64,000 bases of DNA from an uncultured Bacilli bacterium (GTDB lineage: Bacteria; Bacillota_I; Bacilli_A; RF39; UBA660). The notes below the pieces were generated by a model, which searched no databases, was not told where the DNA came from, and was given only the letters and a program-made list of their open reading frames with translations. Shown piece after piece: positions 20,443 through 40,846 of the stretch. Both the position numbers and the translations under genes were made by a program. Location of the stretch: assembly GCA_934090795.1 (NCBI GenBank), contig CAKOJQ010000003.1, positions 33,252-97,251 of the forward strand. The letters are read 5' to 3'. Position 1 is the first letter of the stretch. The number at the start of each line of letters is the position of its first letter.

Positions 20443-20595
20443 TTAACACATATTTCTTGACATTCCTCTACGTATAGATGATCCAACTGCTCTACCAAGC
20501 TCAAATATTGTATTAATAAATCTTGATAAAGCATTAAGAATAGTTCCATTAATCGTTTGTCCACCTGTAATTTTATTAAGTTCTATGTCCTTCAT
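20443..20595 (-). CDS. Bacteriocin-type precursor peptide B (50 aa) with double-glycine leader: MKDIELNKITGG|QTINGTILNALSRFINTIFELGRAVGSSIRRGMSRNMC
   Basis: Translated by hand from the minus strand; absent from the ORF track (<60 aa). 12-aa leader matching the class II consensus (L-12, I-4, GG-1). Start ATG overlaps the stop of peptide A (TAATG coupling). GRAVG GxxxG motif. Confidence 0.6.
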   Translation of the reverse strand: MKDIELNKITGGQTINGTILNALSRFINTIFELGRAVGSSIRRGMSRNMC

Positions 20596-20726
20596 TAGTT
20601 ACATTTAAGAGGACGAATGAAACCATCTACAACACCAATTAAAAAAGTAATTAAGCCACCAATAATAGCTAAAACAGAATAATTAGCTTTTCCACCAGTT
20701 ACCCTATTTAATTCATAATCATTCAT
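20595..20726 (-). CDS. Bacteriocin-type precursor peptide A (43 aa) with double-glycine leader: MNDYELNRVTGG|KANYSVLAIIGGLITFLIGVVDGFIRPLKCN
   Basis: Hand-translated; AAGGAG RBS 10 nt upstream. ATG overlaps the last 8 nt (ATGAATGA) of the C39-ABC transporter gene. Hydrophobic mature part with GxxxG (GVVDG). Both peptides end in a Cys-containing tail. Confidence 0.6.
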   Translation of the reverse strand: MNDYELNRVTGGKANYSVLAIIGGLITFLIGVVDGFIRPLKCN

Positions 20727-22704
20727 CGCACTTCTCCTTTCTATCATTTAAAATATAGATTATTTGGTTATAATTAACATCATCATTAAAATGATTTACA
20801 TAAATAATTGTCTTATCATTATAAACCTCATTAATTTTATTAATTATTTCAATTCTTTCTCTAACCGCAATCTCTGAAAATGCTTCATCTAATATCAAGA
20901 TATTAAAGTTTTTATATAAACTTCTTGCAATAATTATCTTTTGTTTTTCTCCACCACTAAAATTATCTCTAACTATCGTATTTAGCTTATTTTCTTTCTT
21001 ATTAATAACATCTTCTAAATTAACTATTTTAATTATCTTATTTAGTCTATCTTTATCTAATTCATTATCTAATATAATATTATTAATTATTGTATCTTCA
21101 AATAAATAACTATTTTGATTAACATAAGATAAATTATCTAAATAACTATTATAGCTTATATCATTAAGATTCAAATTTCCTATTATTATTTTTCCATCAT
21201 AATCAGTTATATTCTTAGTTAAAATATTAATTAAAGTACTCTTTCCACTTCCATTGCATCCTTTAATTAACACTTTACTTCCCTGTTTTATTTTAAAACT
21301 TTTATTATTAATTATCTTATTTAATCCTATATAATAATTTAATTTAGAAACAATAATATCACCATTATTAAATAAGTATCCTTCACTTTTATTATCATAT
21401 TCTAAATAATATATTCCACTTATTCTATCAATCATCATCTTTAAATATTTAATAATTGGTTTAATTGTAATCAAATAATTAAAGGTATCTTTTAAATAAT
21501 CAAAATATAACAAATAAATCATAACTATTTTTAAATTACTATTTAAGCATCCCAAAATAACAATTAAACTTAAAGAGTTAACTGTTTCCATTAACGTATT
21601 TAAATAATTATTATTTCTATCTAATAAATAATTTGCTTCTGTCACATTTTTAGAATATATATCTAATTTCTTTTTAAAATAAATATTTAAATTTAATGAA
21701 CTAATAGTAATAATTTTTTCTATATACTCACATATATGATCCATATAAATATTATCTTTATCCATTAAATCATTATAATATTTAAGAATAATTTTATTTA
21801 ATTTAATACTTATTAAATAAGCGACTATATAAATTGATATAACTATAAATGTAAGTTTCAAATCTAAATATAGAAGAATAATTAAGGATATTAAACCTAA
21901 ACTAACATTTAAAATAAAATTAATAATTTCAGTACTTAAATAATTTTTAATTTTATTTAAGTCTTTAATTCGGTTAGTAATATCACCTACAGATTTTAAA
22001 TGCAAATATTTATAAGGGAGATTAAAATACTTTGATAAGTAATTGTTAACTAGTTCTAAATTAATTTTTTTATTTAAATTAATCAAGCATTCATTTTTAA
22101 TAAAATTAATTATTAATTTCGTAAGAATAATGGTAATAAAAATATTTAAATATTTATTATCTAATAAAATACTTTTAATTAATACTGACTGAAATATACT
22201 TAAAAATATTAATATAATTGTAAATATCAAACATATTATTACTTTAAACTTATTTTTATATACTAAATTTTTCAAGTAATCTAAATAAACATTTTTCTTT
22301 TTATATCTAACAATTTTCCCATTAGGAATTAGTTTTAAAATATAACCAGTAAATATTTTGTTAAACTCTTGATAAGTATATTTAGTTAGACCAACTTCGG
22401 GATCCATAACTACTACTTTATCTTTATTTTTTTCATAAACAACCATAAAATGATTAAAATTATTAATTCTGGTTTGAACTATATATGGTGGAGATACATC
22501 TTGATTAATAATTCCTATTGAATCAAAGCCATATTTTAAAGCTGCCATCTTAATATTATAAAAATTAGTGCCTTTATTATCAGTTAATGTATCACATCTA
22601 ACTACTTCTAATGGAACAAAACCATTATAATATTTAATAATTGACGCTAATGAACTAGCCCCACAATCTTTTTCTTCTTCTTGTCTAACAATATATCCTT
22701 TCAT
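20719..22704 (-). CDS. Bacteriocin-processing ABC transporter with N-terminal C39 peptidase domain (LagD/LcnC/ComA family)
   Basis: 661 aa. C39 catalytic Cys (EEKDCGASSLASII) and His (NFNHFMVVY). Six TM segments. Walker A GCNGSGKST, signature FSGGEKQ, Walker B ILILDEA. Confidence 0.85.
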   Translation of the reverse strand: MKGYIVRQEEEKDCGASSLASIIKYYNGFVPLEVVRCDTLTDNKGTNFYNIKMAALKYGFDSIGIINQDVSPPYIVQTRINNFNHFMVVYEKNKDKVVVMDPEVGLTKYTYQEFNKIFTGYILKLIPNGKIVRYKKKNVYLDYLKNLVYKNKFKVIICLIFTIILIFLSIFQSVLIKSILLDNKYLNIFITIILTKLIINFIKNECLINLNKKINLELVNNYLSKYFNLPYKYLHLKSVGDITNRIKDLNKIKNYLSTEIINFILNVSLGLISLIILLYLDLKLTFIVISIYIVAYLISIKLNKIILKYYNDLMDKDNIYMDHICEYIEKIITISSLNLNIYFKKKLDIYSKNVTEANYLLDRNNNYLNTLMETVNSLSLIVILGCLNSNLKIVMIYLLYFDYLKDTFNYLITIKPIIKYLKMMIDRISGIYYLEYDNKSEGYLFNNGDIIVSKLNYYIGLNKIINNKSFKIKQGSKVLIKGCNGSGKSTLINILTKNITDYDGKIIIGNLNLNDISYNSYLDNLSYVNQNSYLFEDTIINNIILDNELDKDRLNKIIKIVNLEDVINKKENKLNTIVRDNFSGGEKQKIIIARSLYKNFNILILDEAFSEIAVRERIEIINKINEVYNDKTIIYVNHFNDDVNYNQIIYILNDRKEKCDE

Positions 22705-25266: not shown

Positions 25267-26004
25267 TTATTGTGCCGTATATCCTCCATCAATTGGAATA
25301 ACAGCTCCAGTTATAAATGATGCTTTTTCACTTAATAAATAAACAATTAAATTAGCAATTTCATTATCTTTTCCTAATCTTCCAATAGGCATTTGATTAG
25401 CCATAGCCTCTTTCATATCAGCAGGAACTTGACTTAAAATTGGAGTATCAACATAACCTGGCGCAACTGCATTAATTCTAATATTATCTCTTGCATAAGT
25501 AAGTGCAAGTGATCTTGTCATTTGGTTAATTGCTCCTTTAGTAGCTGAATAAGCAAAACTCATAGTTGTACCAACTAAGCCATACATACTTGATGTATTA
25601 ACAATGCTTCCACCACCATTTTTAAGCATTTCAGCAATAACATATTTATTAGCTAAGAATATTCCTGTTTGATTAACAGCAACAACCTTATTCCATTCTT
25701 CTAAACTAACTTCATGGGCTTTATTTGGTCCACCACCAATTCCAGCATTTGCAACTAAGTAATCAATGTGTCCAAATTTACTTACTGTTTCCTCTACTAA
25801 AGATTTAACATTTTCTTCACTTGAAACATCACATTTAATTCCTAATGCATTTTCACCTATACTAGATGCAATTTCTTCAACATTATCATTCCAATCAGCA
25901 AGAACAACATTTACACCATAACCAGCTAACTTTTTAGCAGTAGCAAGACCAATACCTGATGCTCCTCCTGTTATAATTGCAACTTTATTATTTTCCATTT
26001 TCAT
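25267..26004 (-). CDS. Short-chain dehydrogenase/reductase (SDR) family oxidoreductase
   Basis: TGGASGIG Rossmann motif, NAG, catalytic YSATK (YxxxK); 245 aa. Confidence 0.8.
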   Translation of the reverse strand: MKMENNKVAIITGGASGIGLATAKKLAGYGVNVVLADWNDNVEEIASSIGENALGIKCDVSSEENVKSLVEETVSKFGHIDYLVANAGIGGGPNKAHEVSLEEWNKVVAVNQTGIFLANKYVIAEMLKNGGGSIVNTSSMYGLVGTTMSFAYSATKGAINQMTRSLALTYARDNIRINAVAPGYVDTPILSQVPADMKEAMANQMPIGRLGKDNEIANLIVYLLSEKASFITGAVIPIDGGYTAQ

Positions 26005-26081: not shown

Positions 26082-28553
26082 TTATCTTAACTTACTTTTG
26101 TCATCTAAATTATATTTGTTTATTAACTCTTCAACACTATAACCAAATTTATCTTTAAATTCTTCATTATTCATATAGAAAATTTGGTTTAATTTACCAT
26201 TTTCATCAATAAGATTTATTCCTAACTCCTCACTTAATTTTATTTTAGCAATAAATTCTTTCAATGCACTTAGATGTGTAACTTGTTTATTTAATTCAGT
26301 GTCTATCTTACGCTCTAAACATATATTTTTTATTTGAGTAAAATCTTTTAATAGATTAAATCTCATACCAATTTGTAAAAGCAATTTGCCCTGTTCACTT
26401 TCAGGTAAACATTTTTGTCTTTGCGTATCAATCCATCTTCCTAAATTTATTTTGCCATTAATATCATAATTTTTTCCATCATTGGTTTTAAATTTTACGG
26501 GAATTTCTAAATCTCCGTGTGATTCATAATACTTTTTGGCATATTCATACATTTCTTTCCATGATAATGTAGAATTTTTATTTTGAAATCGCATGCCGAT
26601 TTGTAAAAGGGATTTGCCTTGTTCACTTTTAATTGGGCATAAATATCTTTGATTAGTTATCCATTGACCTAAGTTTATTTTACCATTTGGATCATAAGTT
26701 ACTCCATCATTGGTTTTAAACCATCGCGGTATTTCTAAATTTCCATGTACTTCATAATATTTTTTAGCCAGTTCATACATTTCTTTCCATGATAACGTTG
26801 AATTTTTATTTTCGAATCTCATGTCAATTTGTAAAAGTAATTTTTCCCTTTCACTTTCCGGTAAACATCTCCTTCTTTGCTTTGATATCCATTGACCTAA
26901 GTTTATTTGGCCATTAGGATTATAATTTATTCCATCATTGGTTTTAAATTTTACGGGAATTTCTAAATCTCCGTGTGATTCATAATACTTTTTGGCATAT
27001 TCATACATTTCTTTCCATGATAATGTAGATTTCTTATTTTCAAATCGCATTCCGATTAGTAAAAGTAATTTTCCCCTTTCACTATCAGGTAAACATGATT
27101 GTCTTTGATTTGCTATCCAACATCCTAAATTTATCTTTCCATTTGAATCATATGTAGTTCCATCATTAGTTTTAAACCTTTGAAGTATTTCTAAATCGCC
27201 ATATGTTTCATAATATTTTCTTGCAAGTTCATAATAATCCATCCAAGTTCGATTAATTCTTTTATAATAATCACTTAAGAAATTAAATATATCTATATTC
27301 TGAATTTCAATATTAAATTTAACTTCAGAAATATTGCTTCTTTCGTTGATTCTTCCTGTTTTGTGACTTTGTTCTTTAATTCTATCCTTAATGTTATTTT
27401 CAAGTTCATTCATATAAGTATAATTTCCGGCTAAATCAATAATTACAGGATTATTATTTCGATTAACGGATAAGGCTCTACCTAGTTGTTCAAAGAAAAC
27501 AATATCCGATGATGTTCCTCTTCCCATAATTACTCCATCAACATTTGGAGCATGAATTCCTTCATTATATTGATTTATAGCAAACATGACTCTTAATTTA
27601 TTACTTACATTATTACCACTTAAATCTACATCTTGGTAAAATGCTTCTCTATTTTTCTTTCCATCAGTTCCCATCTCACTTGTTGTTGAATAAAAAGCAA
27701 TATTTTCTTCACATGTTATTTGTTTAAACCATTCAAGTGCTTCTTTTTTAATGGTTTCAATATCGTTTACATCTTTTTCTGAAAATGGTGGACAAAAATA
27801 TATTAGTTTAGAATTTGAATGAATTGTTTCTTTTATAATTTTAGCTATACTTGGTGCTTCAGCTATTCTTTTTTTAGCAGCCTCTAGCTCTTTTTGATTT
27901 TCTTCTTCTAGACCTAAAGAACTTGTTTTATTCTCTAATTTTTTTAGTATTTCTTCTAAACCAATTACACTTGTTTTATAAGTTATATTTTGGGGTAAGA
28001 TACCATCAATTATGGCATCACATAAGTCATATCTACTTATTATTTTATTAGAAAATAATTCATCAGTTTCTGGATTTGCCATATCTCTTTCATATGAAGT
28101 ATTTCGGTCTCTTATAGTATAAGCAGTCATTCCAAATATTTTAATATCAGAATGAGTTTCAATAAATGTTTTAGTACGAGCACCCCATATTGGTGCTCCT
28201 AAATGATGGAATTCATCTAAAATTAATAAATCGCAATCAATATTCTCCATCTCTTCAAGTGATAAATTAATCAAACTTTGATAGGTTCTAAATTCAACAT
28301 TAGCAAAATCTTTTTCTTTACTAAAACCGGATTCTTTAATAATGTTTTCCAGATGTTCTATAATCCCATTTGATGGAACTATATATACAACTTTTTTATC
28401 TTGATTATGATAAGCTAAATTTAAAGCAAGATAGCTTTTACCAGTACCTGTTGCATGAACTATACCGACAACATCTTCACCACTTTGATAAGCATTATCT
28501 ATTTTTCTATATGCTTCTTCATTATGTTTATATAACTCTAAACCTCTATTCAT
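26082..28553 (-). CDS. SF2 helicase (ResIII/DEAD-like) fused to five tandem ~68-aa helicase-associated (HA-like) repeats
   Basis: Walker A HATGTGKSY, DExH LILDEFHH, motif III TAYT, motif VI FEQLGRAL. C-terminal repeats STLSWKEMYEYAKKYYESHGDLEIPVKFKTNDGxNYxxNGKINLGxWIxxQRxxCLPESExGKLLLQIGMRFxNKN x5. Confidence 0.7.
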   Translation of the reverse strand: MNRGLELYKHNEEAYRKIDNAYQSGEDVVGIVHATGTGKSYLALNLAYHNQDKKVVYIVPSNGIIEHLENIIKESGFSKEKDFANVEFRTYQSLINLSLEEMENIDCDLLILDEFHHLGAPIWGARTKTFIETHSDIKIFGMTAYTIRDRNTSYERDMANPETDELFSNKIISRYDLCDAIIDGILPQNITYKTSVIGLEEILKKLENKTSSLGLEEENQKELEAAKKRIAEAPSIAKIIKETIHSNSKLIYFCPPFSEKDVNDIETIKKEALEWFKQITCEENIAFYSTTSEMGTDGKKNREAFYQDVDLSGNNVSNKLRVMFAINQYNEGIHAPNVDGVIMGRGTSSDIVFFEQLGRALSVNRNNNPVIIDLAGNYTYMNELENNIKDRIKEQSHKTGRINERSNISEVKFNIEIQNIDIFNFLSDYYKRINRTWMDYYELARKYYETYGDLEILQRFKTNDGTTYDSNGKINLGCWIANQRQSCLPDSERGKLLLLIGMRFENKKSTLSWKEMYEYAKKYYESHGDLEIPVKFKTNDGINYNPNGQINLGQWISKQRRRCLPESEREKLLLQIDMRFENKNSTLSWKEMYELAKKYYEVHGNLEIPRWFKTNDGVTYDPNGKINLGQWITNQRYLCPIKSEQGKSLLQIGMRFQNKNSTLSWKEMYEYAKKYYESHGDLEIPVKFKTNDGKNYDINGKINLGRWIDTQRQKCLPESEQGKLLLQIGMRFNLLKDFTQIKNICLERKIDTELNKQVTHLSALKEFIAKIKLSEELGINLIDENGKLNQIFYMNNEEFKDKFGYSVEELINKYNLDDKSKLR

Positions 28554-28806
28554 CTAAATCACTTTCCACTTTTTCTATATCTATAAAATTAGTTCCATCT
28601 ATTGTTTGCTTAGTAATCATTACATAATCATTTTTAAGAATTTGACAGTTAAATTCATCTTGTTCAAATTCATATGATTCTACTTCACCATCAACATCTA
28701 TTTTAAAACCAATATTATGTCTATCAATAACATCTAATAAATTGTTGTTTTCATTATATTCTAAAGGAATATAAACTTCCTTAACTATTCCATATAATCT
28801 TTCCAT
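28546..28806 (-). CDS. Small acidic protein (86 aa from MERLYGIV...) translationally coupled to helicase 1
   Basis: ORF track gives 28546..28863 (TTG start); the ATG at 28804-06 is more plausible. Stop overlaps the helicase start by 8 nt. pI very acidic (many D/E). Confidence 0.4.
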   Translation of the reverse strand: MERLYGIVKEVYIPLEYNENNNLLDVIDRHNIGFKIDVDGEVESYEFEQDEFNCQILKNDYVMITKQTIDGTNFIDIEKVESDLDE

Positions 28807-28878
28807 GATACCACTCTTTTCTTTTTTAATTTTAACATAAATATGAAAAAAGGTAACCACCAACGATTATCTTTACTA

Positions 28879-29394
28879 CTAATTATTGTTTGGTAATTTC
28901 TTTACCCATTCATAAAGTTCTTTACACTTATTATCAAGTTCTTTTAAAACATCAAGCATACTTAAATGTTTATTATTTTTATCATAATAACTAGTTTTAC
29001 ATTCAAGTAAAGTTCTTGGATAATCAAACCCTTCATCTACTTCTATATCAAACCCATTAGGTAAATTATCAAAATCATATTTATCATTAAATAAAATATA
29101 AGTTATTGTACTATCTAATTCCTTCCAATAATCAAAATTATTTTCCTTTATTTTTTTAATAATAATTCTTTCATTATTTTGATATTCTTCTAAGTTTTTA
29201 ATATCCTCATCAAAATATTCGTAAAATTCAATTTTATAATGACCTGAACAACTTGCAAATGTTTTATATCCCTTTTTATTTAACAAAGCAACCGCAGGAG
29301 CAATCATTTTATCACAAACAAACACTTTAGGATGATCTTCAGCATAAGTATAAACTTCAAATGTTTCCTTATCTATAATACTATTTTTATCCAT
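28879..29394 (-). CDS. Hypothetical protein (171 aa)
   Basis: ORF upstream of the small acidic protein; no family recognised. Confidence 0.3.
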   Translation of the reverse strand: MDKNSIIDKETFEVYTYAEDHPKVFVCDKMIAPAVALLNKKGYKTFASCSGHYKIEFYEYFDEDIKNLEEYQNNERIIIKKIKENNFDYWKELDSTITYILFNDKYDFDNLPNGFDIEVDEGFDYPRTLLECKTSYYDKNNKHLSMLDVLKELDNKCKELYEWVKKLPNNN

Positions 29395-29439
29395 AATATA
29401 AATCGCCTTCCTATATAAAATTATAACATAATAAATTCC

Positions 29440-29840
29440 TACTCTAAATTAATACCTTTATTTAATAATTTATTTCCCATAAAATATAATGCACTATCAA
29501 TAAATACTTGTAAAAATACATATAAATACAACATTTTTCTTAATAACATATATTTACCTTTTAAATCATATGCCCTATCATAATTATTAATGAATAATGA
29601 TAATTCTGGAATATTTTTACCAATAATACTAAATATAGATATTATTAATAAAATTGTTAAAAGATAAGTTACAACACTAAAAGTAACTGATTTAGATTTT
29701 TATTATTATTCCATTTACTTCCTAAAGTAGTACCAAAATATCCCGAATATTCTAAAGGTATATATACTTCTTTAACTACACCATATAATCTTTCCGTGAT
29801 ACCACTCATTTCTTTTTTAATTGTAACATAAATATAAAAA
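29440..29840 (-). pseudogene. Decayed cassette remnant: 5' end of a second small-acidic-protein gene (MSGITERLYGVVKEVYIPLEY...) frameshifted into a membrane-protein-like fragment
   Basis: 29700-29840 is ~80% identical at DNA level to 28760-28870 (promoter/RBS/first 20 codons of the 86-aa gene), then diverges. Two disrupted reading frames; no intact ORF. Confidence 0.4.
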
Positions 29841-29857
29841 AAGGTAATCTTAATGGA

Positions 29858-30523
29858 TTATCTCTTTACCAATCTTTTTCCTTTATTTTTATTATACATA
29901 TATTCATCTATTGAAACTTGATGTTTTATATCTTTAACATCATCAACCAATTGCAACTTATTAAATAAACGCATAAACATAACATTAAAAGGAGCATAAT
30001 AACTACCAGAATTACAAAATTTAATTGTTACTCTTCCCAAATTAGTACTTCCATTTAAAACTCCCGATAATATAGATTTAGGTATAAATTCAAGTTCAAA
30101 TTCATCATCTATTTTTCTTATCTTTAAAATATTAGCATCATCGTGATTAAGTTCATCACTGCACCATGTAATAGTCTTATTTTCTTCATCATATAATTCA
30201 AAATAATGATAAAAATCATATTTGAGAGCTTTCTCACGATATCTTTTATTATATTTTTCAACCTCATAATTATTATTAAAAACATTATCCAAAGTACAAA
30301 CATTTACATTTTCTATATCCGCAAATAAATCTTGAAATGCTGAATATACTGCCCCATTTTCTTTAGTAATAGTAAAAAACATATTTTTAATTAATTTACT
30401 ATCATCCATTATTGTCCAGTACAAATCACCATTTCCGTAAGTAGACATATTAACTCTAACATTTCCATCAATTAATGTAATATCTTTAAAACCATTATTA
30501 ATTCCACTAGTAACAATTTCCAT
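29858..30523 (-). CDS. Hypothetical protein (222 aa from MEIVTSGINNG...)
   Basis: GGAGG RBS before the ATG at 30521-23 (ORF track's 30544 start is longer). Directly downstream of helicase 2. Confidence 0.35.
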   Translation of the reverse strand: MEIVTSGINNGFKDITLIDGNVRVNMSTYGNGDLYWTIMDDSKLIKNMFFTITKENGAVYSAFQDLFADIENVNVCTLDNVFNNNYEVEKYNKRYREKALKYDFYHYFELYDEENKTITWCSDELNHDDANILKIRKIDDEFELEFIPKSILSGVLNGSTNLGRVTIKFCNSGSYYAPFNVMFMRLFNKLQLVDDVKDIKHQVSIDEYMYNKNKGKRLVKR

Positions 30524-30583
30524 TTTAAACCTCCAAACATACAATATACTATATTAAAAATAATATTAATGCAATTTAGAATT

Positions 30584-32359
30584 TTAAAAAATTTTTAATT
30601 TTGGCTTATCTTTTAATTCAAATCTATCAACTAATTCTTCAATAGATATACCAAATTTTCTTTCAAATTCATCATTGCTCATATAAAATAAAATATTTAA
30701 CTTTCCATTTTTATCTAATAAAGGTAAACCAAACTTAATTGTTAGCTTTACTTTAATATAAAATGCATAAATAGTACCTGTTAATAAAACTTGTTTATTT
30801 TTTTCTAAATCAATTCCTCTTTGAATACAAACTTTTTTTATAGCTTTATAATCATTTATTGTATTAAAACGCATTCCTATTTGTAAAAGTAATATTCCTT
30901 GATTACTTAGAGGAGCACATCTATTTCTTTGATTTATAATCCACTTACCTAAATTTATTCTACTATTATTCGAATATGTAACTCCATCATTTGTTTTAAA
31001 GTTTTGAGGAATTTCTAAATTTCCATATTTTTCATAATAATTTTTTGCAAGTTCATAATAATATCCCCAAATATTATTAATTTTTCTTTGATACTCAACC
31101 AATTTATTATACAAGTCAGTATTAAGAACCTCAATATTCAAAAAAATATCATTTTTAAAATTTCCCTCAATTATACTTTTACTAAATAATTTATTTTTAA
31201 TTGTAGTATCCAATTCATTCATATATTCAAAATTACCAGCCAAATCAATTATCACAGGATTATTATCACGGTTAACAGCTAAAGCTCTACCTAATTGTTC
31301 AAAGAAAATAATATCAGATGATGTTCCTCTTCCCATAATAACACCATCTATATTTGGTGCGTGAATTCCTTCATTATACTGATTAATTGCAAACATGACT
31401 CTTAGCTTATCACTAACATCATTCCCATTTAAATCAATATCATGATAAAAGGCTTCTCTATTTCTTTTACCTTCTATTCCCATGTCACTTGTTGTTGTAT
31501 AAAAGATAATATTTTCTTCATCTGTTACTTGTTTAAACCATTCTATTGCTTCTTGTTTTACAGTCTCGATATCATTCACACCTTTTTCTGAAAATTGAGG
31601 ACAAAAATAAATTATTTTAGAATTTTTATGAATTGTATCTATAATTATCTTATTTATACTTGGAGCATTACCTATCCTTTTTTTAATATTTTCTAATTCT
31701 TCTAGATTATTATCTAAACCTAAAGCCTTAGTTCTTATTTCTAACTTTTTTAATATTTCTTCTAAACCAACAGCACTAGTCTTATAAACTACTTTTTGTG
31801 GTAATACGCCATCAATAATAGCGTCACTAATATCATATCTACTTACTATTTTATTAGAAAATAATTCATCAGTCTCTGGATTAGCCATATCTCTTTCGTA
31901 AGACTTATTTCGATTTCTTATTGTATAAGCAGTCATACCAAACACTTTCATATTTGGATGTGTTTCAATTAATGTCTTGGTACGATCTTCCCAAACAGGA
32001 GCACCTAAATGATGAAATTCATCTAATATTAATAAATCACAATTAATATTTTCTATTTCTTCAAAAGATAAATTAATTAAACTTTGATAAGTTCTAAATT
32101 CTACATTAGCAAAATCTTTTTTAACACTTAGATTAGATTCTTTAATAATATTTTCTAAATGTTCTATAATTCCATTTGAAGGTACCAAATAAACAATTTT
32201 TTTCTTTTGATTATTATAAGCTAAGTTTAATCCAAGATAACTTTTACCAGTACCCGTTGCATGTACTATTCCAACTACATTTTCACCACTTTTATAAGCA
32301 TCTTCTATTTTTTTATAAGTTTCTTTATTATGATTATATAATTTTAAACCTTTATTCAT
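30584..32359 (-). CDS. SF2 helicase (ResIII/DEAD-like) with 1-2 HA-like repeats; paralogue of 26082..28553
   Basis: N-terminal 400 aa ~75-80% identical to helicase 1 (MNKGLKLYNHNKETYKKIEDAYKSGENVVGIVHATGTGKSYLGLNLAY...LILDEFHHLGAP...). C-terminal has a single clear repeat plus a degenerate one. Confidence 0.7.
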   Translation of the reverse strand: MNKGLKLYNHNKETYKKIEDAYKSGENVVGIVHATGTGKSYLGLNLAYNNQKKKIVYLVPSNGIIEHLENIIKESNLSVKKDFANVEFRTYQSLINLSFEEIENINCDLLILDEFHHLGAPVWEDRTKTLIETHPNMKVFGMTAYTIRNRNKSYERDMANPETDELFSNKIVSRYDISDAIIDGVLPQKVVYKTSAVGLEEILKKLEIRTKALGLDNNLEELENIKKRIGNAPSINKIIIDTIHKNSKIIYFCPQFSEKGVNDIETVKQEAIEWFKQVTDEENIIFYTTTSDMGIEGKRNREAFYHDIDLNGNDVSDKLRVMFAINQYNEGIHAPNIDGVIMGRGTSSDIIFFEQLGRALAVNRDNNPVIIDLAGNFEYMNELDTTIKNKLFSKSIIEGNFKNDIFLNIEVLNTDLYNKLVEYQRKINNIWGYYYELAKNYYEKYGNLEIPQNFKTNDGVTYSNNSRINLGKWIINQRNRCAPLSNQGILLLQIGMRFNTINDYKAIKKVCIQRGIDLEKNKQVLLTGTIYAFYIKVKLTIKFGLPLLDKNGKLNILFYMSNDEFERKFGISIEELVDRFELKDKPKLKIF

Positions 32360-32692
32360 ATATTTTATCCCCTTATTCTTTATTTCCTTTTTTTATTTAA
32401 TTTAAGTTAGATTAGCACATAAAATTTTGTATTTCATATGTGTTAATAGACTATCTCATCCTTAAATTAATACATATTTTAGCATAATTTTAGATAAAAC
32501 ACAAACATTTTTTTGCTTATATATTCGCCACTTATTGGAAAAATTATTTTAGAAACCACTTCTTCGGCATATACTTTGTTATTAATTATAACTAGTTCGA
32601 AAAAATTATTTTAACAATAGAATGATTATCATATATATTGCCTTTAAAAATTTATTATTTAATTTATATTTTCAAACATTTAATTCTTTCTT

Positions 32693-34330
32693 TTATTTAC
32701 CATCTATTATTTTTTTCTTTATGTCTTTATCAATTGGAGACAATGGTAACTCTAGACCATATTTAATAAATAAATCTTTATGTTTAGACATTTCTATATT
32801 AAATTGTTGTCTTAGTTCATCATTTTTGCCTATTTCATTAAGTAATATTTTTGAATACTCCAAAAATTCTTTTTTATCCCTTTTTAGAAATTTTTTATCT
32901 TTAAAATAACTTAAATCAATTTTAGCAAGACGATGAAATATTAAAGTAAATAAACCTGATAATAGTAAGCCCATTGCTACATTAAGAGTAGTATCTGTGC
33001 TTTCAAATTCTTTAGATTCTAAATCTATCGTTTTATATATTATCTCATAATAATCAACTAATTCTGTATACTTAATTGGCGACTTTGATATATCTATAAT
33101 ATTCTTTTTAGATTCAGGTAATAAATTATTTGATTGGATATATTCAATATATTTTTCCATATCATCGTATCCTAAAAAACTTAAATCATAGGTTTTTGTT
33201 TCTCTTAATTTTAATTTTGCTTCGGCTGCGCCATAATTATATTCTCTACTTTTTCTTCCTTCTTTTTTAGCAGTTTTATCATCTAAAACATGATATTCAA
33301 TAAGATATGTTTGCTCTGGCTTTATTTCATCTACAAATCCAATTATTTCTTTTGTATTAGAAGATGTAACTTGATTTGTAATTGAATTGTATATTTCAGT
33401 ATTAGTTTCATAATAATATGCTGATGTTAATTCCTTAAACCAAGAAAACACTCCAGAAAATATACCTATTGATATTGATAAGGTTATAGCAGTTGAAATT
33501 AGTGATGTAAATAATTTTAATAATTCTTTTTTACATAATTTTTTAAAATATTGTACATTCTGATCAGCCTTTGTATAAGAACTATATGTGTGATAGATTT
33601 GACTGTCACTTTTATCAATTAAAGATAATAAATTTGTCATATCATCTTTGATAGACTCTTCTAATTTTTCTTTTTCATCTCTAAAAACAATTGTTTTTAT
33701 AAAACTATTATCTAGAAGTTCAGCTGGATTCAAATTCTTCTTAGCATTGTAATAACATACTTCAATTTCCGGATATTCAGTTAAATCTATGGTCTTAATA
33801 TATTCTTCAATCATTAAACTTATAAACATAGTATCATTAATATCATACTTACAAAATTCTAATAGTTCGCTTTTTTGATTCAATTTTATCTCTATAAAAA
33901 TAACTTTTAAAATAGCATTATAGAATGGTTCAACTACTTGTTTTTCATCCTCATAATCAACTACTGAAGAATTTCTTATTTTTCTTAAAAGAAGTTTTAT
34001 TTCATCTATTATTTCGTTTAAGTTTTCACTAGTAATATTAACTTTATTTAAATATTTGACATAATAATATACTTTAACATAAATAGTATAACTATCTAAC
34101 TTGGCATCTAACTTTTCTAATTTTCCTGTAGCGTTTATATAGTCATTTATTATAATTCCTTCAAAACTATTTTTCTTAGAACTTTTAATATCATTATTAT
34201 TTTCTATTTTGATACTATCTAATTCTTCTCTTATTTTAGTTACATCAAAACCAATTTTTTCAATCTCTCTTATTTTGTTATCAATTTCAATTAATTTTGC
34301 TTTATAGCTAATTGCGACGTCTGTGTTCAT
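32693..34330 (-). CDS. Two-TM membrane protein with long N-terminal coiled-coil-like domain (paralogue A)
   Basis: 545 aa; AGGAGG RBS. TMs LISTAITLSISIGIFSGVF and LNVAMGLLLSGLFTLIF. N- and C-termini similar to 34334..36010. Confidence 0.45.
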   Translation of the reverse strand: MNTDVAISYKAKLIEIDNKIREIEKIGFDVTKIREELDSIKIENNNDIKSSKKNSFEGIIINDYINATGKLEKLDAKLDSYTIYVKVYYYVKYLNKVNITSENLNEIIDEIKLLLRKIRNSSVVDYEDEKQVVEPFYNAILKVIFIEIKLNQKSELLEFCKYDINDTMFISLMIEEYIKTIDLTEYPEIEVCYYNAKKNLNPAELLDNSFIKTIVFRDEKEKLEESIKDDMTNLLSLIDKSDSQIYHTYSSYTKADQNVQYFKKLCKKELLKLFTSLISTAITLSISIGIFSGVFSWFKELTSAYYYETNTEIYNSITNQVTSSNTKEIIGFVDEIKPEQTYLIEYHVLDDKTAKKEGRKSREYNYGAAEAKLKLRETKTYDLSFLGYDDMEKYIEYIQSNNLLPESKKNIIDISKSPIKYTELVDYYEIIYKTIDLESKEFESTDTTLNVAMGLLLSGLFTLIFHRLAKIDLSYFKDKKFLKRDKKEFLEYSKILLNEIGKNDELRQQFNIEMSKHKDLFIKYGLELPLSPIDKDIKKKIIDGK

Positions 34331-34333
34331 ATT

Positions 34334-36010
34334 TTATTTTCCTCCTAATAATTTTTTCTTGGTAGTACTATCAAGTGCTTCTTTGGGAAGTTTAATTTCC
34401 ATCTGCTCAAATAAATCACCATATTTAGCTGCTTCGATATTAAATAATTCTCTAAGTTTCTCATTTTGACCAATTAACATTAGTAGTTCTTTAGTTTGTT
34501 CTAAAAATAATTTTTTATCATTTTTAAGATTTTCTTTTGCTTTCACACATCTTTTTAAATTCATAATTAGATGAAATTTACTATCATAGTTATAATAATC
34601 ATCTTTAGATAAATCTATATATATAATTCCCGCTTCTATGGCAATAGTTAAAATAGTAAGTATAATAGAAAATGCAATACTATTACTACTTGCTTCGACA
34701 TTTTTGGATTCTAAGTCTATAATATTATATACAATTTCATAATAATCTACATATTCTTGAATAATATCAACATTGTCTTTTATGTTAACAATTTCACTGC
34801 TATTAACAGGTACAGTAGCATTGCTATTCCAATAATCTAAATACCCATTAATATCTTGATATTTTAAATAGCTTAAATCATAAATGGTTTTTCTTCGATA
34901 CCACATAGCATCTTCCTCTGAAATTCCAGAAATATAATTTACTTTAGAATTATAGTCATCAATATCATCATCAGTTAATCTATCATATTTAATAACATAG
35001 GCTGTTTCAGTTGTATCATCAACAATTTCTCGTTCATCACTATGGGTATAAGTATTATCATAAGAACTATATGTATCTTTACTAACATCATATGAATATT
35101 TTTTGAATAACTTTTTGCCTAAAAAATTAAATAAGCTAAAACTAGCTATTGGGATTGATAACGCTATGGCAACTGCAACAATTGATTTCATAAGTTCTTT
35201 AAATTCTAATTTAAATGTTCTAACACTATCTTCATATCTTTTTTCAGTATTAGAATAATCTTTATATTTTTCTTTAATATCTTTTTCAACTGACTCAATA
35301 TTTTTAACCATGTTATTAGCAGGAACTGTTATAACATTTTTTAATCTATCTTTTTCATCTTTAAATACTATTAATTTAAGAAAATCATTATCTAATAGTG
35401 AACTATTACTGCCATTTCTTTTGATTTCATAGTATTTAGCTTCAATTTCGGGATATTTTTCAAAATTAATTTCATCGACTGTTGACTTTATTTTTCTTTC
35501 GATAAATGATTTGTCGATTTCACTAGCTTTGCAAAATTCTAGCAAAGTGCTTTTTCCAGTATAATATATTTCAAAACAAATTACTTTAAAAACACCTGTG
35601 TAAAAAGGCTCAACAATTTTCTTTTCTTCTTCATAATCAATCACTGATGAATTACCAAGACTTCTAAGTAATTTTTTAATTTCACCAACAATTTCACTTA
35701 TTTTATCTTCTTTAATATAATTTTTATCTAAATATTCAGCATAATTATTAACTTTAATATATATTTCAAAAGAATCTAAACTAGAATCTAATTTTTCTAA
35801 TCTTGCCATTGCATTAGAATAATCAGCAATTATAAATCCTTCAAAATTTTTATTTTTAGATATTTTAACTTTTGAATTAGTATCAGTAATAATTTTTTCT
35901 ACTTCTTCTTTAAATGTCTTAACATTAAAACCAATTCTTTCTATTTCTTCTATTTTGTCTTCAACCTGGATTAGTTTAGCTTTATAATTTAGTGCTACAT
36001 CTGTATTCAT
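34334..36010 (-). CDS. Two-TM membrane protein (paralogue B); probable start MNTDVALNYK
   Basis: ORF track's 36100 start is longer. GGGGGAATGAG RBS before the ATG at 36008-10, and the N-terminus aligns with paralogue A (MNTDVAISYKAKLIEID... vs MNTDVALNYKAKLIQVED...). Confidence 0.45.
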   Translation of the reverse strand: MNTDVALNYKAKLIQVEDKIEEIERIGFNVKTFKEEVEKIITDTNSKVKISKNKNFEGFIIADYSNAMARLEKLDSSLDSFEIYIKVNNYAEYLDKNYIKEDKISEIVGEIKKLLRSLGNSSVIDYEEEKKIVEPFYTGVFKVICFEIYYTGKSTLLEFCKASEIDKSFIERKIKSTVDEINFEKYPEIEAKYYEIKRNGSNSSLLDNDFLKLIVFKDEKDRLKNVITVPANNMVKNIESVEKDIKEKYKDYSNTEKRYEDSVRTFKLEFKELMKSIVAVAIALSIPIASFSLFNFLGKKLFKKYSYDVSKDTYSSYDNTYTHSDEREIVDDTTETAYVIKYDRLTDDDIDDYNSKVNYISGISEEDAMWYRRKTIYDLSYLKYQDINGYLDYWNSNATVPVNSSEIVNIKDNVDIIQEYVDYYEIVYNIIDLESKNVEASSNSIAFSIILTILTIAIEAGIIYIDLSKDDYYNYDSKFHLIMNLKRCVKAKENLKNDKKLFLEQTKELLMLIGQNEKLRELFNIEAAKYGDLFEQMEIKLPKEALDSTTKKKLLGGK

Positions 36011-36181: not shown

Positions 36182-38356
36182 TTACGCCCTAGTTGGATTA
36201 TTATCTATTTCAATATTTACTTTACTATTTAATTTATAAATATCATCTAAGTATTTTAAATGTTCTTTAACCAAATTATAGGCTTTATATTTTAATATTA
36301 TTTGAAATCTATAAACATTATTTATTTTAAACATTGCAGCAGTTGTTGGTCCTAAAATTATAACATTAGTAAGTTTTTTATCTAAATAACTTTTAACTTT
36401 AGATATTTCTTTAGATGCCTCATTATAATCTTTGGATGCAATTAAAATTTTAGTTATATAAAAGTATGGCGGATATTTAAGAATTTTTCTAATATTCATT
36501 TCATAATTATAAAGAGATTCATAATCATTATTTTTAGCATATTCTATTATTTTGTTATCACTATTAAATGTTTGAATTACAGCATCTGATTTATCACTTG
36601 CTCTTCCAGCTCTACCAATTGTTTGAGTAATAAGTTCAAAAGTATTTTCTCCACTTCTAAAATCAGGAATATTTAAAGAATCATCTGCATTAATTATGGC
36701 TGCTAATGTTACTTTAGGAAAATCAAAACCTTTACTAATCATTTGAGTACCAACAATTATGCTTACATCTTCGCTTTCTATTTTAGCTATAATTTCGTCT
36801 TGGCTACCTTTTTTACTGGTCGTATCAGCATCCATTCTAACTGTTTTAACATTATATCTTTTATTAATTTCTTCTTCTAACTTTTCAGTACCAAGTCCAA
36901 AATTAGTTAAAGATTTTTCCATACAACTTGGACAGGTATCGGGATTATTAATGGTATATCCACAATAATGGCATCTTAAATTATTACTTGTTTTATGATA
37001 AGTTAAAGATATTTCACAATGAGGGCATTTAAAGGTATAACCACAATTTTTACAATTAACAATAGTTGAAAACCCTCTTCGATTAAGCATTAATAAAACT
37101 TGTTCATTTGCTTTTAGTTTCTCCCTTATTTTTTGATCTAAATATTCACTTATAATCATATTTCTTTTTTTATATTCTTCTTGCATATCAACTATTTTGG
37201 TAGTAGGCATTACACTTTTTCCAATTCGTTTTGTTAAAGATAGTAAAGTATAAACCCTCTTTTTAGCTCTAGCCATTGTTTCAAGTGAAGGCGTTGCAGA
37301 ACCAAGTACAACTGGACAGTTATGATATTTACTTCTTAAAAGAGCAATATTTCTAGCATGATATCTAGGATTACTATCTTGTTTATAGTTACTACTTTGT
37401 TCTTCATCTAATATGATAATTCCAATTTTTTCAAAAGGAACAAATATAGCACTTCTAGTTCCAACAACAATATGAACATCTCCATTTAAAATTTTATGAT
37501 ATTCATCATATTTTTCACCATCTGATAAAGCACTATGGAAAATAGCAACATCACTACCAAATCTTGAATAAAATCTTGAAACTATTTGATGAGTTAAACT
37601 AATTTCCGGAACAAGAAGTATTGCACATTTACCTGTTTTAACTACTTTTTCAATTAACTCCATGTACACCTCAGTTTTGCCTGATCCAGTTACCCCATGA
37701 AGTAAAAATATTTCACTTTTATTAAAACTTGCCTCTACTTTTTCTACTACTTCTTTTTGTTCTAAAGTTAGTTCTTTTTTCTTAAAACTATTATTATCAA
37801 TATTTATACGATATTTATTAACTTTATTTATTTTAATAATACTTTCATTAACAAGTTTTTTAACTATATCTAAACTATATTCTTTTTTTAAGATTTTTTC
37901 ATTATTTAAAAGTCTATTAAGTAGTTCAATTTGTTTAATACTTCTTTTATTATTGTTAGTATAATTAATAGCAGAATCTTTATTTATTAATTCTAAATAT
38001 TCATCATATTTTTGATAACTACTTTTAATTGTTTTTATTTTCATAGAAGATGGAAGCATTGCTTGATATGCTTGAATAAGAGAACAAAGGGTTAATTCTT
38101 TTAATGTTTTACCAAGCTCTAATAACTCTTTATTTAAACAAAAGTATTCATCTGTAATACTTGCTATTTCTTTTAAATTATTGCTATTACAATTATTAGT
38201 TATTTCTAAGACAAATCCATTAATTAAGGTATTTCTAAAAGGAACTTTTACTTTCATTCCAACTTTTAAATTATCTTTTAAAATATCAGGAATAATATAA
38301 GTAAAGGTTTGATCTAGTGCTTTAGCACCATATTCAACTAAAATATTAGCATACAC
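36182..38356 (-). CDS. priA: Primosomal protein N' (replication restart helicase PriA)
   Basis: Walker A LLHGVTGSGKTEVY, DEEQ box, Cys4 zinc-finger cluster CKNCGYTFKCPHCEISLTYHKTSNNLRCHYCGY...CPSC. Confidence 0.85.
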   Translation of the reverse strand: MYANILVEYGAKALDQTFTYIIPDILKDNLKVGMKVKVPFRNTLINGFVLEITNNCNSNNLKEIASITDEYFCLNKELLELGKTLKELTLCSLIQAYQAMLPSSMKIKTIKSSYQKYDEYLELINKDSAINYTNNNKRSIKQIELLNRLLNNEKILKKEYSLDIVKKLVNESIIKINKVNKYRINIDNNSFKKKELTLEQKEVVEKVEASFNKSEIFLLHGVTGSGKTEVYMELIEKVVKTGKCAILLVPEISLTHQIVSRFYSRFGSDVAIFHSALSDGEKYDEYHKILNGDVHIVVGTRSAIFVPFEKIGIIILDEEQSSNYKQDSNPRYHARNIALLRSKYHNCPVVLGSATPSLETMARAKKRVYTLLSLTKRIGKSVMPTTKIVDMQEEYKKRNMIISEYLDQKIREKLKANEQVLLMLNRRGFSTIVNCKNCGYTFKCPHCEISLTYHKTSNNLRCHYCGYTINNPDTCPSCMEKSLTNFGLGTEKLEEEINKRYNVKTVRMDADTTSKKGSQDEIIAKIESEDVSIIVGTQMISKGFDFPKVTLAAIINADDSLNIPDFRSGENTFELITQTIGRAGRASDKSDAVIQTFNSDNKIIEYAKNNDYESLYNYEMNIRKILKYPPYFYITKILIASKDYNEASKEISKVKSYLDKKLTNVIILGPTTAAMFKINNVYRFQIILKYKAYNLVKEHLKYLDDIYKLNSKVNIEIDNNPTRA

Positions 38357-38422: not shown

Positions 38423-38983
38423 CTATCTATGTTTTAAATTTGAATTATTACCTAAAGAATATGTTTTAGGTTTTGATTCTTGGACTTCAGTTTGTTCATT
38501 AATTTCATCTAGTGTTTCGCCTATTTTATCATTTCCATATAATTCTTGGAATTTTAAAAATTTTTGTTTTTCTTCTTCTAAATAAGCAATCATTTCTTCA
38601 GGAGTCATATTATAATAATTTGTTTTTTCTTTAGATTCAATACATGCTTCTTCACTAGAAAATATTAATTTTTGTTTTGGTTCTTCTATTTTAATAATTT
38701 CCCCATTTTCAATAGCTTCTTGTTTTATTTCTTGATACATTTTTTCATAAGCAATAATAAAATAAAATGGTGCAACAATATTTACGATTGGAGTTAAACA
38801 TTCCAGTATAACTCCAAAAAAAGATACCAATTTTTCTGAAAAAGTTTCTGATTTTTCAACAACAGCCTTATATCCTTCTCTTTCTAATCTATTATTCATT
38901 GCCTTATTAGTCAATTCACCAGTAACATATGTTAAAAATGATGAAATTAACTCAATAATTAAAAGTATTTGTAATAATGACAT
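38423..38983 (-). CDS. Small 2-TM membrane protein, tandem family member 1 (186 aa)
   Basis: MSLLQILLIIELISSFLTYV TM1, second TM, then conserved C-terminal tail ...MTPEEMIAYLEEEKQKFLKFQELYGNDKIGETLDEINEQTEVQESKPKTYSLGNNSNLKHR. Confidence 0.55.
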   Translation of the reverse strand: MSLLQILLIIELISSFLTYVTGELTNKAMNNRLEREGYKAVVEKSETFSEKLVSFFGVILECLTPIVNIVAPFYFIIAYEKMYQEIKQEAIENGEIIKIEEPKQKLIFSSEEACIESKEKTNYYNMTPEEMIAYLEEEKQKFLKFQELYGNDKIGETLDEINEQTEVQESKPKTYSLGNNSNLKHR

Positions 38984-39010
38984 ATTCTTTCCTGCCTTTC
39001 AATGTTTTGT

Positions 39011-39039
39011 ATTATAATATATTTTATGGATAAACACAA
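39011..39039 (-). promoter_or_regulatory. Sigma-A promoter of family member 1: TTGTGT-17-TATAAT (minus strand)
   Basis: Reverse complement: catttagTTGTGTttatccataaaatatatTATAATacaaaacattgaaAGGCAGGAAAgaatATG. Confidence 0.5.
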
Positions 39040-39230
39040 CTAAATGTTTACAAATGTGTTTTAATTGAACGGGATATATTGATCAAATTTTTTGCCAATT
39101 TTTATAAGTTAAAGTGTTGTGTAATTTTAATTATTGTGAAGTAAAACTAATAAATATTTAAAAAAATATTTTACTGCTAATTTATATAAAATCAAAATAA
39201 CAAATAAAAACATAAATAGTTTAAATAATT

Positions 39231-39779
39231 CTATCTATGTTTTAAATTTGAATTATTACCTAAAGAATATGTTTTAGGTTTTGATTCTTGGACTTCAGTT
39301 TGTTCATTAATTTCATCTAGTGTTTCGCCTATTTTATCATTTCCATATAATTCTTGGAATTTTAAAAATTTTTGTTTTTCTTCTTCTAAATAAGCAATCA
39401 TTTCATCAGGAGTCATTGTTTTATAATCAATTTTTTCTTCTGATTCGTCTTTAATATTTTCATTTTCTTCTCCACCAAAGAATATTTCATCATTTATATA
39501 ATTTTTTCGTACATTTGGATATATTTTTTCAAAATTAAATATTATTATCCATGGGTACACCATATTAAATATAGGAATAATTGATATAAATAGTGTTTTT
39601 AGTATACTTTCAAGTATACTTTTAAAATTTTTATAAAATATTATTTGTGTTCCTGGTGCAAACCTATTTAACTCGTTTTTTATTCTTTTAAGAGTTATTG
39701 CCATAAATATTTCTTGAGTTACAGATGTAAAAATTGCAGACACAGCATATATTATTAAAAGTATTTTTAATAATGACAT
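39231..39779 (-). CDS. Small 2-TM membrane protein, tandem family member 2 (182 aa)
   Basis: Same architecture. The C-terminal 63 aa are identical to member 1, and the last ~200 nt plus ~60 nt of 3' flank are near-identical at DNA level. Confidence 0.55.
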   Translation of the reverse strand: MSLLKILLIIYAVSAIFTSVTQEIFMAITLKRIKNELNRFAPGTQIIFYKNFKSILESILKTLFISIIPIFNMVYPWIIIFNFEKIYPNVRKNYINDEIFFGGEENENIKDESEEKIDYKTMTPDEMIAYLEEEKQKFLKFQELYGNDKIGETLDEINEQTEVQESKPKTYSLGNNSNLKHR

Positions 39780-39806
39780 AACTTTTCCTTCCTTTCATTG
39801 GCTTGT

Positions 39807-39835
39807 ATTATAGCATATTTTCAAGTTGAATACAA
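39807..39835 (-). promoter_or_regulatory. Sigma-A promoter of family member 2: TTGTAT-17-TATAAT
   Basis: Reverse complement: cttttagTTGTATtcaacttgaaaatatgcTATAATacaagccaatgaaAGGAAGGAAAAgttATG. Confidence 0.5.
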
Positions 39836-40045
39836 CTAAAAGTTCGTAATATAATATTTAATTTTTCCGTTCCTTTTTGATTTTTCATTAATTTAATTCT
39901 TTATTTTTATTAATTTTCAATAAATTAAGGTATTTTGTAATTTTAACTATTGTGAAGTAATATTAATAAACATTTAAAAAATATTTTACAGATAATTTAT
40001 ATAAAAACAAAATAACAAATAAAAACATAAATAGTTTAAATAATT

Positions 40046-40582
40046 CTATTTATGTTTTAAATTTGAATTATTACCTAAAGAATATGTTTTAGGTTTTGAT
40101 TCTTGGACTTCAGTTTGTTCATTAATTTCATCTAGTGTTTCGCCTATTTTATCATTTCCATATAATTCTTGGAATTTTAAAAATTTTTGTTTTTCTTCTT
40201 CTAAATAAGCAATCATTTCTTCAGGAGTCATTGTTTTATAATTAATTTCTTTTTCTGATTCGTATTTAATATTTTCATTTTCTTCTTCATTAAATAATAT
40301 TTCATCATTTATATATTCTTTTCTTATCGTTTGATATATTTCCTCACGATAAGATATTAAAAAACATGGATATACTATATGGCATATAGGAATAATCGAT
40401 AAAACAATTAATAATTTTAGTACACTTTCAAAATCTCTAAAATTTACTTGCGATCCGTCTGTGACACTATCTAAATCTTTTTTTATTCTTTTTATAGTTA
40501 TTATGTTAAAAATTTCGTTAGTTGCAAGTGCAAAAATTGTGCATACACAATAAGTTATTATTTTTATTATTAATAATGACAT
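40046..40582 (-). CDS. Small 2-TM membrane protein, tandem family member 3 (178 aa)
   Basis: Same architecture; divergent TM region; conserved tail ending ...NLKHK. Confidence 0.55.
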   Translation of the reverse strand: MSLLIIKIITYCVCTIFALATNEIFNIITIKRIKKDLDSVTDGSQVNFRDFESVLKLLIVLSIIPICHIVYPCFLISYREEIYQTIRKEYINDEILFNEEENENIKYESEKEINYKTMTPEEMIAYLEEEKQKFLKFQELYGNDKIGETLDEINEQTEVQESKPKTYSLGNNSNLKHK

Positions 40583-40606
40583 AACTTTCCCCCTTCATTG
40601 CTTTGT

Positions 40607-40635
40607 ATTATAGCATATTTTTTGAATAAATGCAA
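40607..40635 (-). promoter_or_regulatory. Sigma-A promoter of family member 3: TTGCAT-17-TATAAT
   Basis: Reverse complement: acagTTGCATttattcaaaaaatatgcTATAATacaaagcaatgaaGGGGGAAAgttATG. Confidence 0.5.
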
Positions 40636-40846
40636 CTGTATGTTCGCAATATAACGTGTGATTTTTTCAGGCCAATTTGATTTTTTCACTAATCTAATTC
40701 TTTATTTTTATTAATTTTCGATAAATTAAGGTATTTTGTAATTTTAACTATTGTGAAGTAATATTAATAAACATTTAAAAAATATTTTACAGATAATTTA
40801 TATAAAAACAAAATAACAAATAAAAACATAAATAGTTTAAATAATT

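Follow-up and report, generated by a model that had tools for sequence, protein, structure and literature searches.

Helicases carrying helicase-associated (HA) domains are widely annotated in Streptomyces, in Firmicutes and on Pseudomonas plasmids, and their biochemistry is uncharacterised. In the proteins that NCBI names 'Helicase associated domain protein', a ResIII-type superfamily 2 (SF2) core is followed by tandem HA repeats (ResIII+HA×N). It has been reported that the HA domain binds DNA (Mills 2013, as cited in PMC12191111), and a nuclear magnetic resonance structure of the domain is available (2KTA). Streptomyces TtrA resembles a helicase, has tandem HA domains, lies in a subtelomeric position and has been implicated in the transfer of replicon ends (bioRxiv 10.1101/2024.11.13.623437); no other HA-domain helicase with a genetic phenotype was found in the literature. 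The present work concerns two neighbouring genes, Hel1 and Hel2, in a 64,000-nucleotide (nt) stretch of DNA from an uncultured Bacilli bacterium (contig CAKOJQ010000003.1, positions 33,252 to 97,251; hereafter the window). Their products have the same order of domains and belong to this known, annotated and uncharacterised family. With moderate confidence, the locus is interpreted as two paralogues of a vertically inherited ResIII/DExH SF2 ATPase whose job would lie in DNA repair, recombination or chromosome maintenance, and not in defence.

Judged by their sequences, Hel1 (823 amino acids, aa) and Hel2 (591 aa) are SF2 ATPases of the ResIII/DExH type. A first-pass annotation had proposed two paralogous genes, each for a ResIII-like SF2 helicase with tandem HA repeats fused to it. 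Both reading frames were confirmed on the minus strand, and the Pfam scan agreed with the assignment, with PF04851 (ResIII) detected at E 1.1e-15 in Hel1 and 2.4e-15 in Hel2 and PF03457 (HA) at E 4.4e-45 in Hel1. The motifs that had been named were all present in both proteins (GTGKS at aa 36, DEFHH at aa 113, TAYT at aa 143 and QLGRA at aa 355/356). On the other hand, the identity claimed for the first 400 aa (75-80%) was too high: the proteins are 71% identical over 504 aa and 73% over the 436-aa core, and the helical C-terminal domain (~83 aa) that follows the repeats is 54% identical. An AlphaFold2 model of Hel2 (predicted local distance difference test score 82) contains two RecA-like domains. 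The second RecA domain of Hel1 and Hel2 does not reach Pfam Helicase_C at E<=0.01, whereas the plasmid-borne members of the family reach that threshold. Structurally, the helicase core is closest to RadD and XPB. Directly after motif III, both proteins carry an invariant, family-specific segment, R-x-R-x(3)-YERDMAN (aa 146-160; window ~28074-28118 in Hel1 and ~31880-31924 in Hel2), which forms a low-confidence loop in the model and lies at a position comparable to that of the RED motif of XPB. No NCBIfam model matched the helicase above noise, an exact-sequence look-up of Hel1 found no record, and a PDB sequence search with the helicase, the HA region and three small neighbouring or associated proteins (p171, p221 and p106) gave no significant match, 2KTA being reached at E 0.59.

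The HA region was described in the first-pass annotation as repeats of ~68 aa, five in the first copy and one to two in the second. The repeat unit is in fact 228 nt or 76 aa (Tandem Repeats Finder, TRF: period 228, 3.8 copies; also period 456), and a family-specific hidden Markov model (HMM) places four repeats in Hel1 and exactly one in Hel2. The Pfam HA model covers four stretches of Hel1 with 152 bits; Hel2 scores 27.3 bits, just below the gathering cut-off of 28.4, and 127 bits with the family-specific HMM. The Hel1 repeats are 64-74% identical in protein sequence (repeats 2 and 4 form the closest pair), and HA repeats are mildly basic, with an isoelectric point (pI) of 7.9-9.3. In 175 full-length family members the number of repeats lies between 1 and 11 and is most often 6. 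It is fixed at 6 in other lineages and at 1 in the Hel2 type, one-repeat forms of 591-599 aa being recurrent, and it varies between 2 and 6 in a group that includes Hel1 and whose members are at least 97% identical to each other in their first 420 aa, with the caveat that short-read assemblies may collapse 228-nt repeats. Repeats are more similar within one protein (64% identity) than between same-index repeats of orthologues (49%), and index and best match agreed in only 106 of 540 cases, near chance, so that the arrays evolve in concert. A positional code of the TALE type was considered and rejected, since same-index repeats are not mutual best matches.

To place the locus among its relatives, one genome per GTDB species was scanned; 148 relatives were found, and the best 80 loci, from 77 assemblies, were kept (loci examined in this work are labelled L001 and so on; L009 is from the sister species of the window's). 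Almost all of these assemblies are titled uncultured Bacilli; they derive from human, rabbit, goat and deer guts, have 22-31% G+C and include Clostridium sp. CAG:710 and CAG:433. A homologue of p86, the small acidic protein encoded in front of Hel1, is found directly upstream and on the same strand of 52 of the 58 helicases with an intact 5' end and sufficient flank, usually with an overlap of 8-23 nt. In addition, 32 of 63 helicase genes are followed directly by the gene for p106, an all-helical protein of ~106 aa, typically after a gap of 1 nt (within L016-L088, e.g. L016:13467-13790). Any other neighbour family occurs at no more than 11 of the 80 loci. The p86 gene and the helicase gene thus form a conserved operon in low-GC gut Bacilli. 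Around it, the neighbours vary between species and represent a housekeeping mix, including NrdD, pyruvate kinase, a tRNA synthetase, thymidylate kinase and a few HTH and GNAT proteins; integrase, transposase, restriction-modification and phage genes were not enriched among 141 non-redundant neighbour proteins scanned with Pfam. Single loci were contributed to the 80 by 75 of the 77 assemblies, and two to three loci only by the two assemblies closest to the window. The ratio of nonsynonymous to synonymous substitution rates (dN/dS) is 0.14-0.17 for orthologues of the Hel1 core, 0.20 between Hel1 and Hel2, 0.18 (at dS 0.83) between Hel2 and its orthologue in L015, and 0.08-0.28 for p86; the helicase cores are under purifying selection. 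The first-pass suggestion of a horizontally acquired locus is not supported, as the p86-helicase pair has the same arrangement across 77 species-level genomes, which is largely the pattern of conserved core genes.

The very acidic 86-aa protein that had been noted ahead of the first helicase, with an 8-nt overlap, was confirmed. Its pI is 4.08 (22 D+E versus 7 K+R), and its model is a five-stranded, oligonucleotide/oligosaccharide-binding (OB)-like beta-barrel with an acidic tail. The first-pass annotation had named it a candidate DNA mimic or regulator; it has the strong acidity of a mimic, its predicted OB-like fold corresponds to no recognised DNA-mimic fold, and the model speaks neither for nor against either role. 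When 1.84 billion representative proteins were searched with a profile, only 146 relatives of p86 were detected, nearly all of them stand-alone proteins of 70-90 aa. One 735-aa metagenomic protein (P0211), which may be either a naturally occurring fusion or a degenerate form, combines a p86-like domain with a helicase remnant lacking Walker A and DExH, the C-terminal domain and, between these two, five HA repeats. The second partner, p106, has no Pfam or PDB match and was not found in the window or its genus. A protein encoded downstream of Hel2, p221, was tried as its replacement and rejected (profile-profile probability 0.1%).

The window has 24.8% G+C and the island that holds both helicases 25.0%, with no GC anomaly. 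In the direction of transcription, on the minus strand, the gene order is priA, p558, p545, Hel2, p221, a remnant of the p86 start, p171, p86, Hel1 and a short-chain dehydrogenase/reductase (SDR) gene. The features are as follows, in window coordinates.

25267-26004, minus strand: SDR oxidoreductase, a flanking housekeeping gene (Pfam adh_short_C2, 1e-67).
26082-28553, minus strand: Hel1, 823 aa, with the core at aa 1-436, four HA repeats at aa 437-740 and an 83-aa helical C-terminal domain.
26334-27245, minus strand: Hel1 HA repeat array, 4 x 228 nt (TRF and repeat families D1/D2).
28546-28806, minus strand: p86, 86 aa, acidic; its stop overlaps the Hel1 ATG by 8 nt.
28756-28872: copy A of a 117-nt direct repeat (family D5), covering the p86 upstream region and first ~17 codons.
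28879-29394, minus strand: p171, 171 aa, without a Pfam match.
29744-29794, minus strand: p86-start remnant ERLYGVVKEVYIPLEY, 17 codons, identified by tblastn with p86 homologues and by translation; the sequence diverges beyond it.
29747-29863: copy B of the direct repeat (family D5), 87% identical to copy A, holding the p86-start remnant.
29858-30523, minus strand: p221, 221 aa from this ATG (228 aa from a TTG), downstream of Hel2.
30584-32359, minus strand: Hel2, 591 aa, with the core and C-terminal domain of Hel1 and a single HA repeat at aa 431-506 (nt 30842-31069).
32693-34330, minus strand: p545, a paralogue of p558.
34334-36010, minus strand: p558, a paralogue of p545, adjoining priA.
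36182-38356, minus strand: priA, a flanking housekeeping gene (PriA families of Pfam, matched by the identical gene in L001-L004).

The 171-aa frame upstream of the p86 gene and the frame after Hel2 had both been predicted correctly, the latter being 221 aa from its ATG instead of 222. The island is flanked by SDR and priA, but Hel2 is not directly beside priA because p545 and p558, a pair missed in the first reading, intervene. Nor are all genes of the island paralogues: a full second copy is lacking for p86, p171 and p221, p86 being repeated only as the 17-codon remnant, and Hel2 has no p86 gene upstream. On human gut metagenome contigs (Hadza and others) identical or nearly identical to the window, the gene order is unchanged and the sporulation genes SpoIIIAH, Germane and GerE lie directly past the SDR gene; Hel2 is 100% identical on 9 same-species contigs from several samples. 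Scans of the 64-kb window for tRNA genes and Rfam families gave zero matches, so that integrative-element landmarks of those kinds were not seen. A promoter and terminator scan of this AT-rich DNA found no more than the shuffled expectation.

Comparison with close relatives shows duplication and local rearrangement of the operon in the window's genus. The sister species in L009 (~93% nucleotide identity) lacks exactly the 3.8-kb block with p545 and Hel2 (window 30574-34346), and its Hel1 has two more HA repeats than that of the window. In another relative, a p558-p545-Hel2 block and a p221-Hel1-SDR block are found on separate contigs. Moreover, the 117-nt direct repeat derived from the p86 5' region brackets a 991-nt segment with p171; in public contigs, the p86-start remnant has been called as a 36-aa gene. 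p171 accompanies the helicase in L001-L005 and L009 alone; its family, conserved in the clade with at least 160 proteins in metagenome-assembled genomes of Bacilli, sits in unrelated contexts elsewhere (e.g. L092-L094), so that p171 is not a helicase partner. Nor is p221 a conserved partner: it was found only in the window's genus, and its linkage to the helicase is limited to the closest relatives. p545 and p558, 40% identical to each other, likewise occur only in the closest relatives and have no Pfam match. No Pfam family was assigned to p171, p221 or p545, and a permissive Pfam scan of these three, p106 and the helicase C-terminal domain returned noise only. In the same-species contigs L001 and L004 the p545 gene is called at 396 aa, and it may be disrupted in some strains.

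Beyond priA, four tandem paralogues of 177-186 aa without a Pfam match occupy window 38423-41380 on the minus strand. Their hydrophobic N-terminal halves are ~50% identical and their C-terminal ~65 aa almost identical, the latter suggesting gene conversion. Taken together with the absence of the block from L009, the split blocks and the 117-nt repeat, these paralogues suggest that tandem duplication and gene conversion are a general habit of the region. The island-like look of the locus would accordingly result from tandem and segmental duplication in a region with other tandem paralogue families. The earlier description of a rapidly evolving locus is correct in part: it fits the absence of the Hel2 block from L009, the 117-nt repeat and the range of 2-6 HA repeats. 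On the other side of the island, two 50-aa reading frames with double-glycine leaders (…NKITGG|, …NRVTGG|; window 20443-20747, minus strand) lie directly downstream of an ABC exporter with a C39 peptidase (20719-22704), and the segment 20443-22704 has the appearance of a bacteriocin locus, either two-peptide or class II.

On the favoured reading, the ancestral unit would be a coupled operon of p86 (an acidic OB-like barrel), the helicase and p106 (a small helical protein, lost in the window's genus). The enzyme may act as an ATP-driven DNA translocase or a remodeller of branched DNA, held on duplex DNA by multivalent and functionally equivalent HA modules whose number would tune avidity or reach without spelling a sequence code. 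p86 could be a stoichiometric subunit or a regulator (the mildly basic HA array might, for instance, take this acidic protein as a pseudo-substrate), and the job of the whole would probably be in DNA repair, recombination or chromosome maintenance rather than in phage defence. Several points weigh against this interpretation. Conservation of the operon was counted among carriers of the gene. The operon sits at a different genomic position in almost every species, there are two to three copies in the window's genus, and the number of HA repeats is polymorphic among nearly identical cores, all of which are typical of accessory and defence genes too. In addition, p86 is too acidic for a classical OB protein that binds single-stranded DNA.

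The same variability of context, copy number and repeat number among cores at least 97% identical would be expected if the locus were an anti-phage or anti-plasmid module, in which the HA array would detect DNA that is foreign or modified, the SF2 motor would act on this DNA, p86 (with p106) would regulate or self-protect, and copy and repeat variation would reflect an arms race. We consider such a module unlikely. The core does resemble structurally the motors of HsdR, LlaBIII, SauUSI and ZorD, fusions of HA domains to PLD nucleases that are relatives of the END defence nucleases are described in PMC12191111, and PADLOC-DB v2 gave a partial match of ~65 aa around motifs V-VI to mREase_IV (type IV restriction; E 4e-11). 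Other matches in that database, to Cas3 and the DinG N-terminus, appeared only at E>1e-5; no model matched end to end, in PADLOC-DB v2 or in NCBIfam, and p86, p171, p221, p545 and p558 had zero PADLOC-DB v2 matches. Pfam revealed neither a nuclease nor any other effector domain in the helicase, p86, p106, p171 or p221, and unlike the restriction and defence systems HsdR, LlaBIII (type ISP), SauUSI and ZorD, the window proteins come without a nuclease, methyltransferase or specificity partner. In viral data, PHROGs gave only the generic 'DNA helicase' phrog_16, a phage collection two weak partial matches and IMG/VR one weak match. The GC match, the low dN/dS, this near-absence from viral records, the PADLOC and NCBIfam results and the lack of tRNA or Rfam elements speak against a recent acquisition. 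Moreover, genes for defence, restriction-modification or mobility are not over-represented among the neighbours, 75 of the 77 sampled assemblies contributed one locus each, the cores are under purifying selection, and the repeats are homogenised and not diversified by position. The phage-defence or restriction-like system proposed in the first-pass annotation is thus disfavoured by the absence of an end-to-end PADLOC match, by housekeeping neighbours and by the single weak relative in IMG/VR.

A bolder extension is that p86, the HA-helicase and p106 make up an undescribed three-component DNA-surveillance machine in gut Bacilli, in which changes in the number of HA repeats (1-11 in the whole family, 2-6 in nearly identical cores), driven by recombination, would be an adaptive, strain-level switch tuning the DNA structures or invaders that are engaged and the acidic, OB-like p86 would be a pseudo-substrate gate; this is distinctly less likely still.

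A TtrA-like role in DNA transfer or replicon maintenance, with the HA array, as has been proposed for TtrA, recognising particular DNA ends or structures, the motor assisting the movement or upkeep of DNA in conjugation or on large plasmids and the chromosomal copies being relics of a mobile element, appears very unlikely. It draws on the telomeric end transfer described for TtrA and its tandem HA domains, and on plasmid-borne relatives: ResIII, Helicase_C and HA×N were confirmed by Pfam on R. albus 7 pRUMAL01 (two adjacent genes, WP_013483605/WP_013483606), an Aneurinibacillus plasmid (WP_272443845) and a Streptomyces linear plasmid (WP_331753504), and partial matches annotated as 'Helicase associated domain protein' are found on many P. 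aeruginosa plasmids. However, the 141 neighbour proteins include no relaxase, type IV secretion system, integrase or replication-initiator genes, and the flanks in the window's species are housekeeping (priA, SDR and sporulation genes). TtrA, which is likened here by description, belongs to the telomeres of linear replicons and to conjugal transfer, in contrast to the chromosomal housekeeping context of the window genes, without transfer genes; an unverified Streptomyces HA helicase is only 24-28% identical to the window family, and the similarity is confined to motifs V-VI through the HA repeats. Similarly improbable is the proposal that only p86-Hel1 is functional and that Hel2 and the small frames are decaying by-products of duplication. 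In its favour, Hel2 has no p86 and a single HA repeat, L009 lacks Hel2 and p545, and the p86 remnant indicates that fragments of genes can survive at this locus. Against it, all motifs and an uninterrupted frame are retained in Hel2, which is identical on the 9 contigs mentioned above, has the L015 orthologue with a dN/dS of 0.18 and is of a one-repeat form that recurs.

With regard to known repair helicases, the vertically inherited ATPase favoured here stands at some distance from its nearest structural relatives. E. coli RadD and archaeal and eukaryotic XPB, both SF2 ATPases of DNA repair, are 16-20% identical to the helicase core in structural alignments (RadD 16-18%) and lack HA repeats, unlike Hel1 and Hel2. 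RadD works with the OB-fold protein SSB (single-stranded DNA-binding protein). A match to a known repair helicase such as RadD had been named in advance as evidence against a new system; it is absent at the sequence level, in NCBIfam and in the PDB including its RadD chains, whereas the structural similarity of the core to RadD and XPB stands. Direct reading of the helicase sequence also found isolated cysteines only, without the CxxC pairs of the RadD zinc finger.

Compared with the plasmid ResIII+HA×N proteins, which carry 6-10 HA repeats, the window family adds the ~83-aa C-terminal helical domain. The R. albus protein is 29% identical to Hel1 over 89% of Hel1, and the two adjacent R. albus genes (L089 6998-13580) have 10 and 8 repeats. 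Plasmid genes of this type often occur as two neighbouring paralogues, like Hel1 and Hel2, and such pairs are found on plasmids of distant phyla (L089; L095, a Streptomyces plasmid), so that pairing may be a recurrent feature of the HA-helicase family. No p86 or p106 is annotated alongside the plasmid copies, unlike in the gut Bacilli operon. These comparisons also bear on annotation, as duplicated cassettes with a ResIII helicase can mimic a defence island, whereas the genes in this case are conserved in their lineage and lie in a part of the chromosome that is prone to duplication. What the gut Bacilli add to the plasmid copies is a translationally coupled operon, two small partners and natural variants with 1-11 HA repeats, which make the function of HA arrays convenient to study in this clade.

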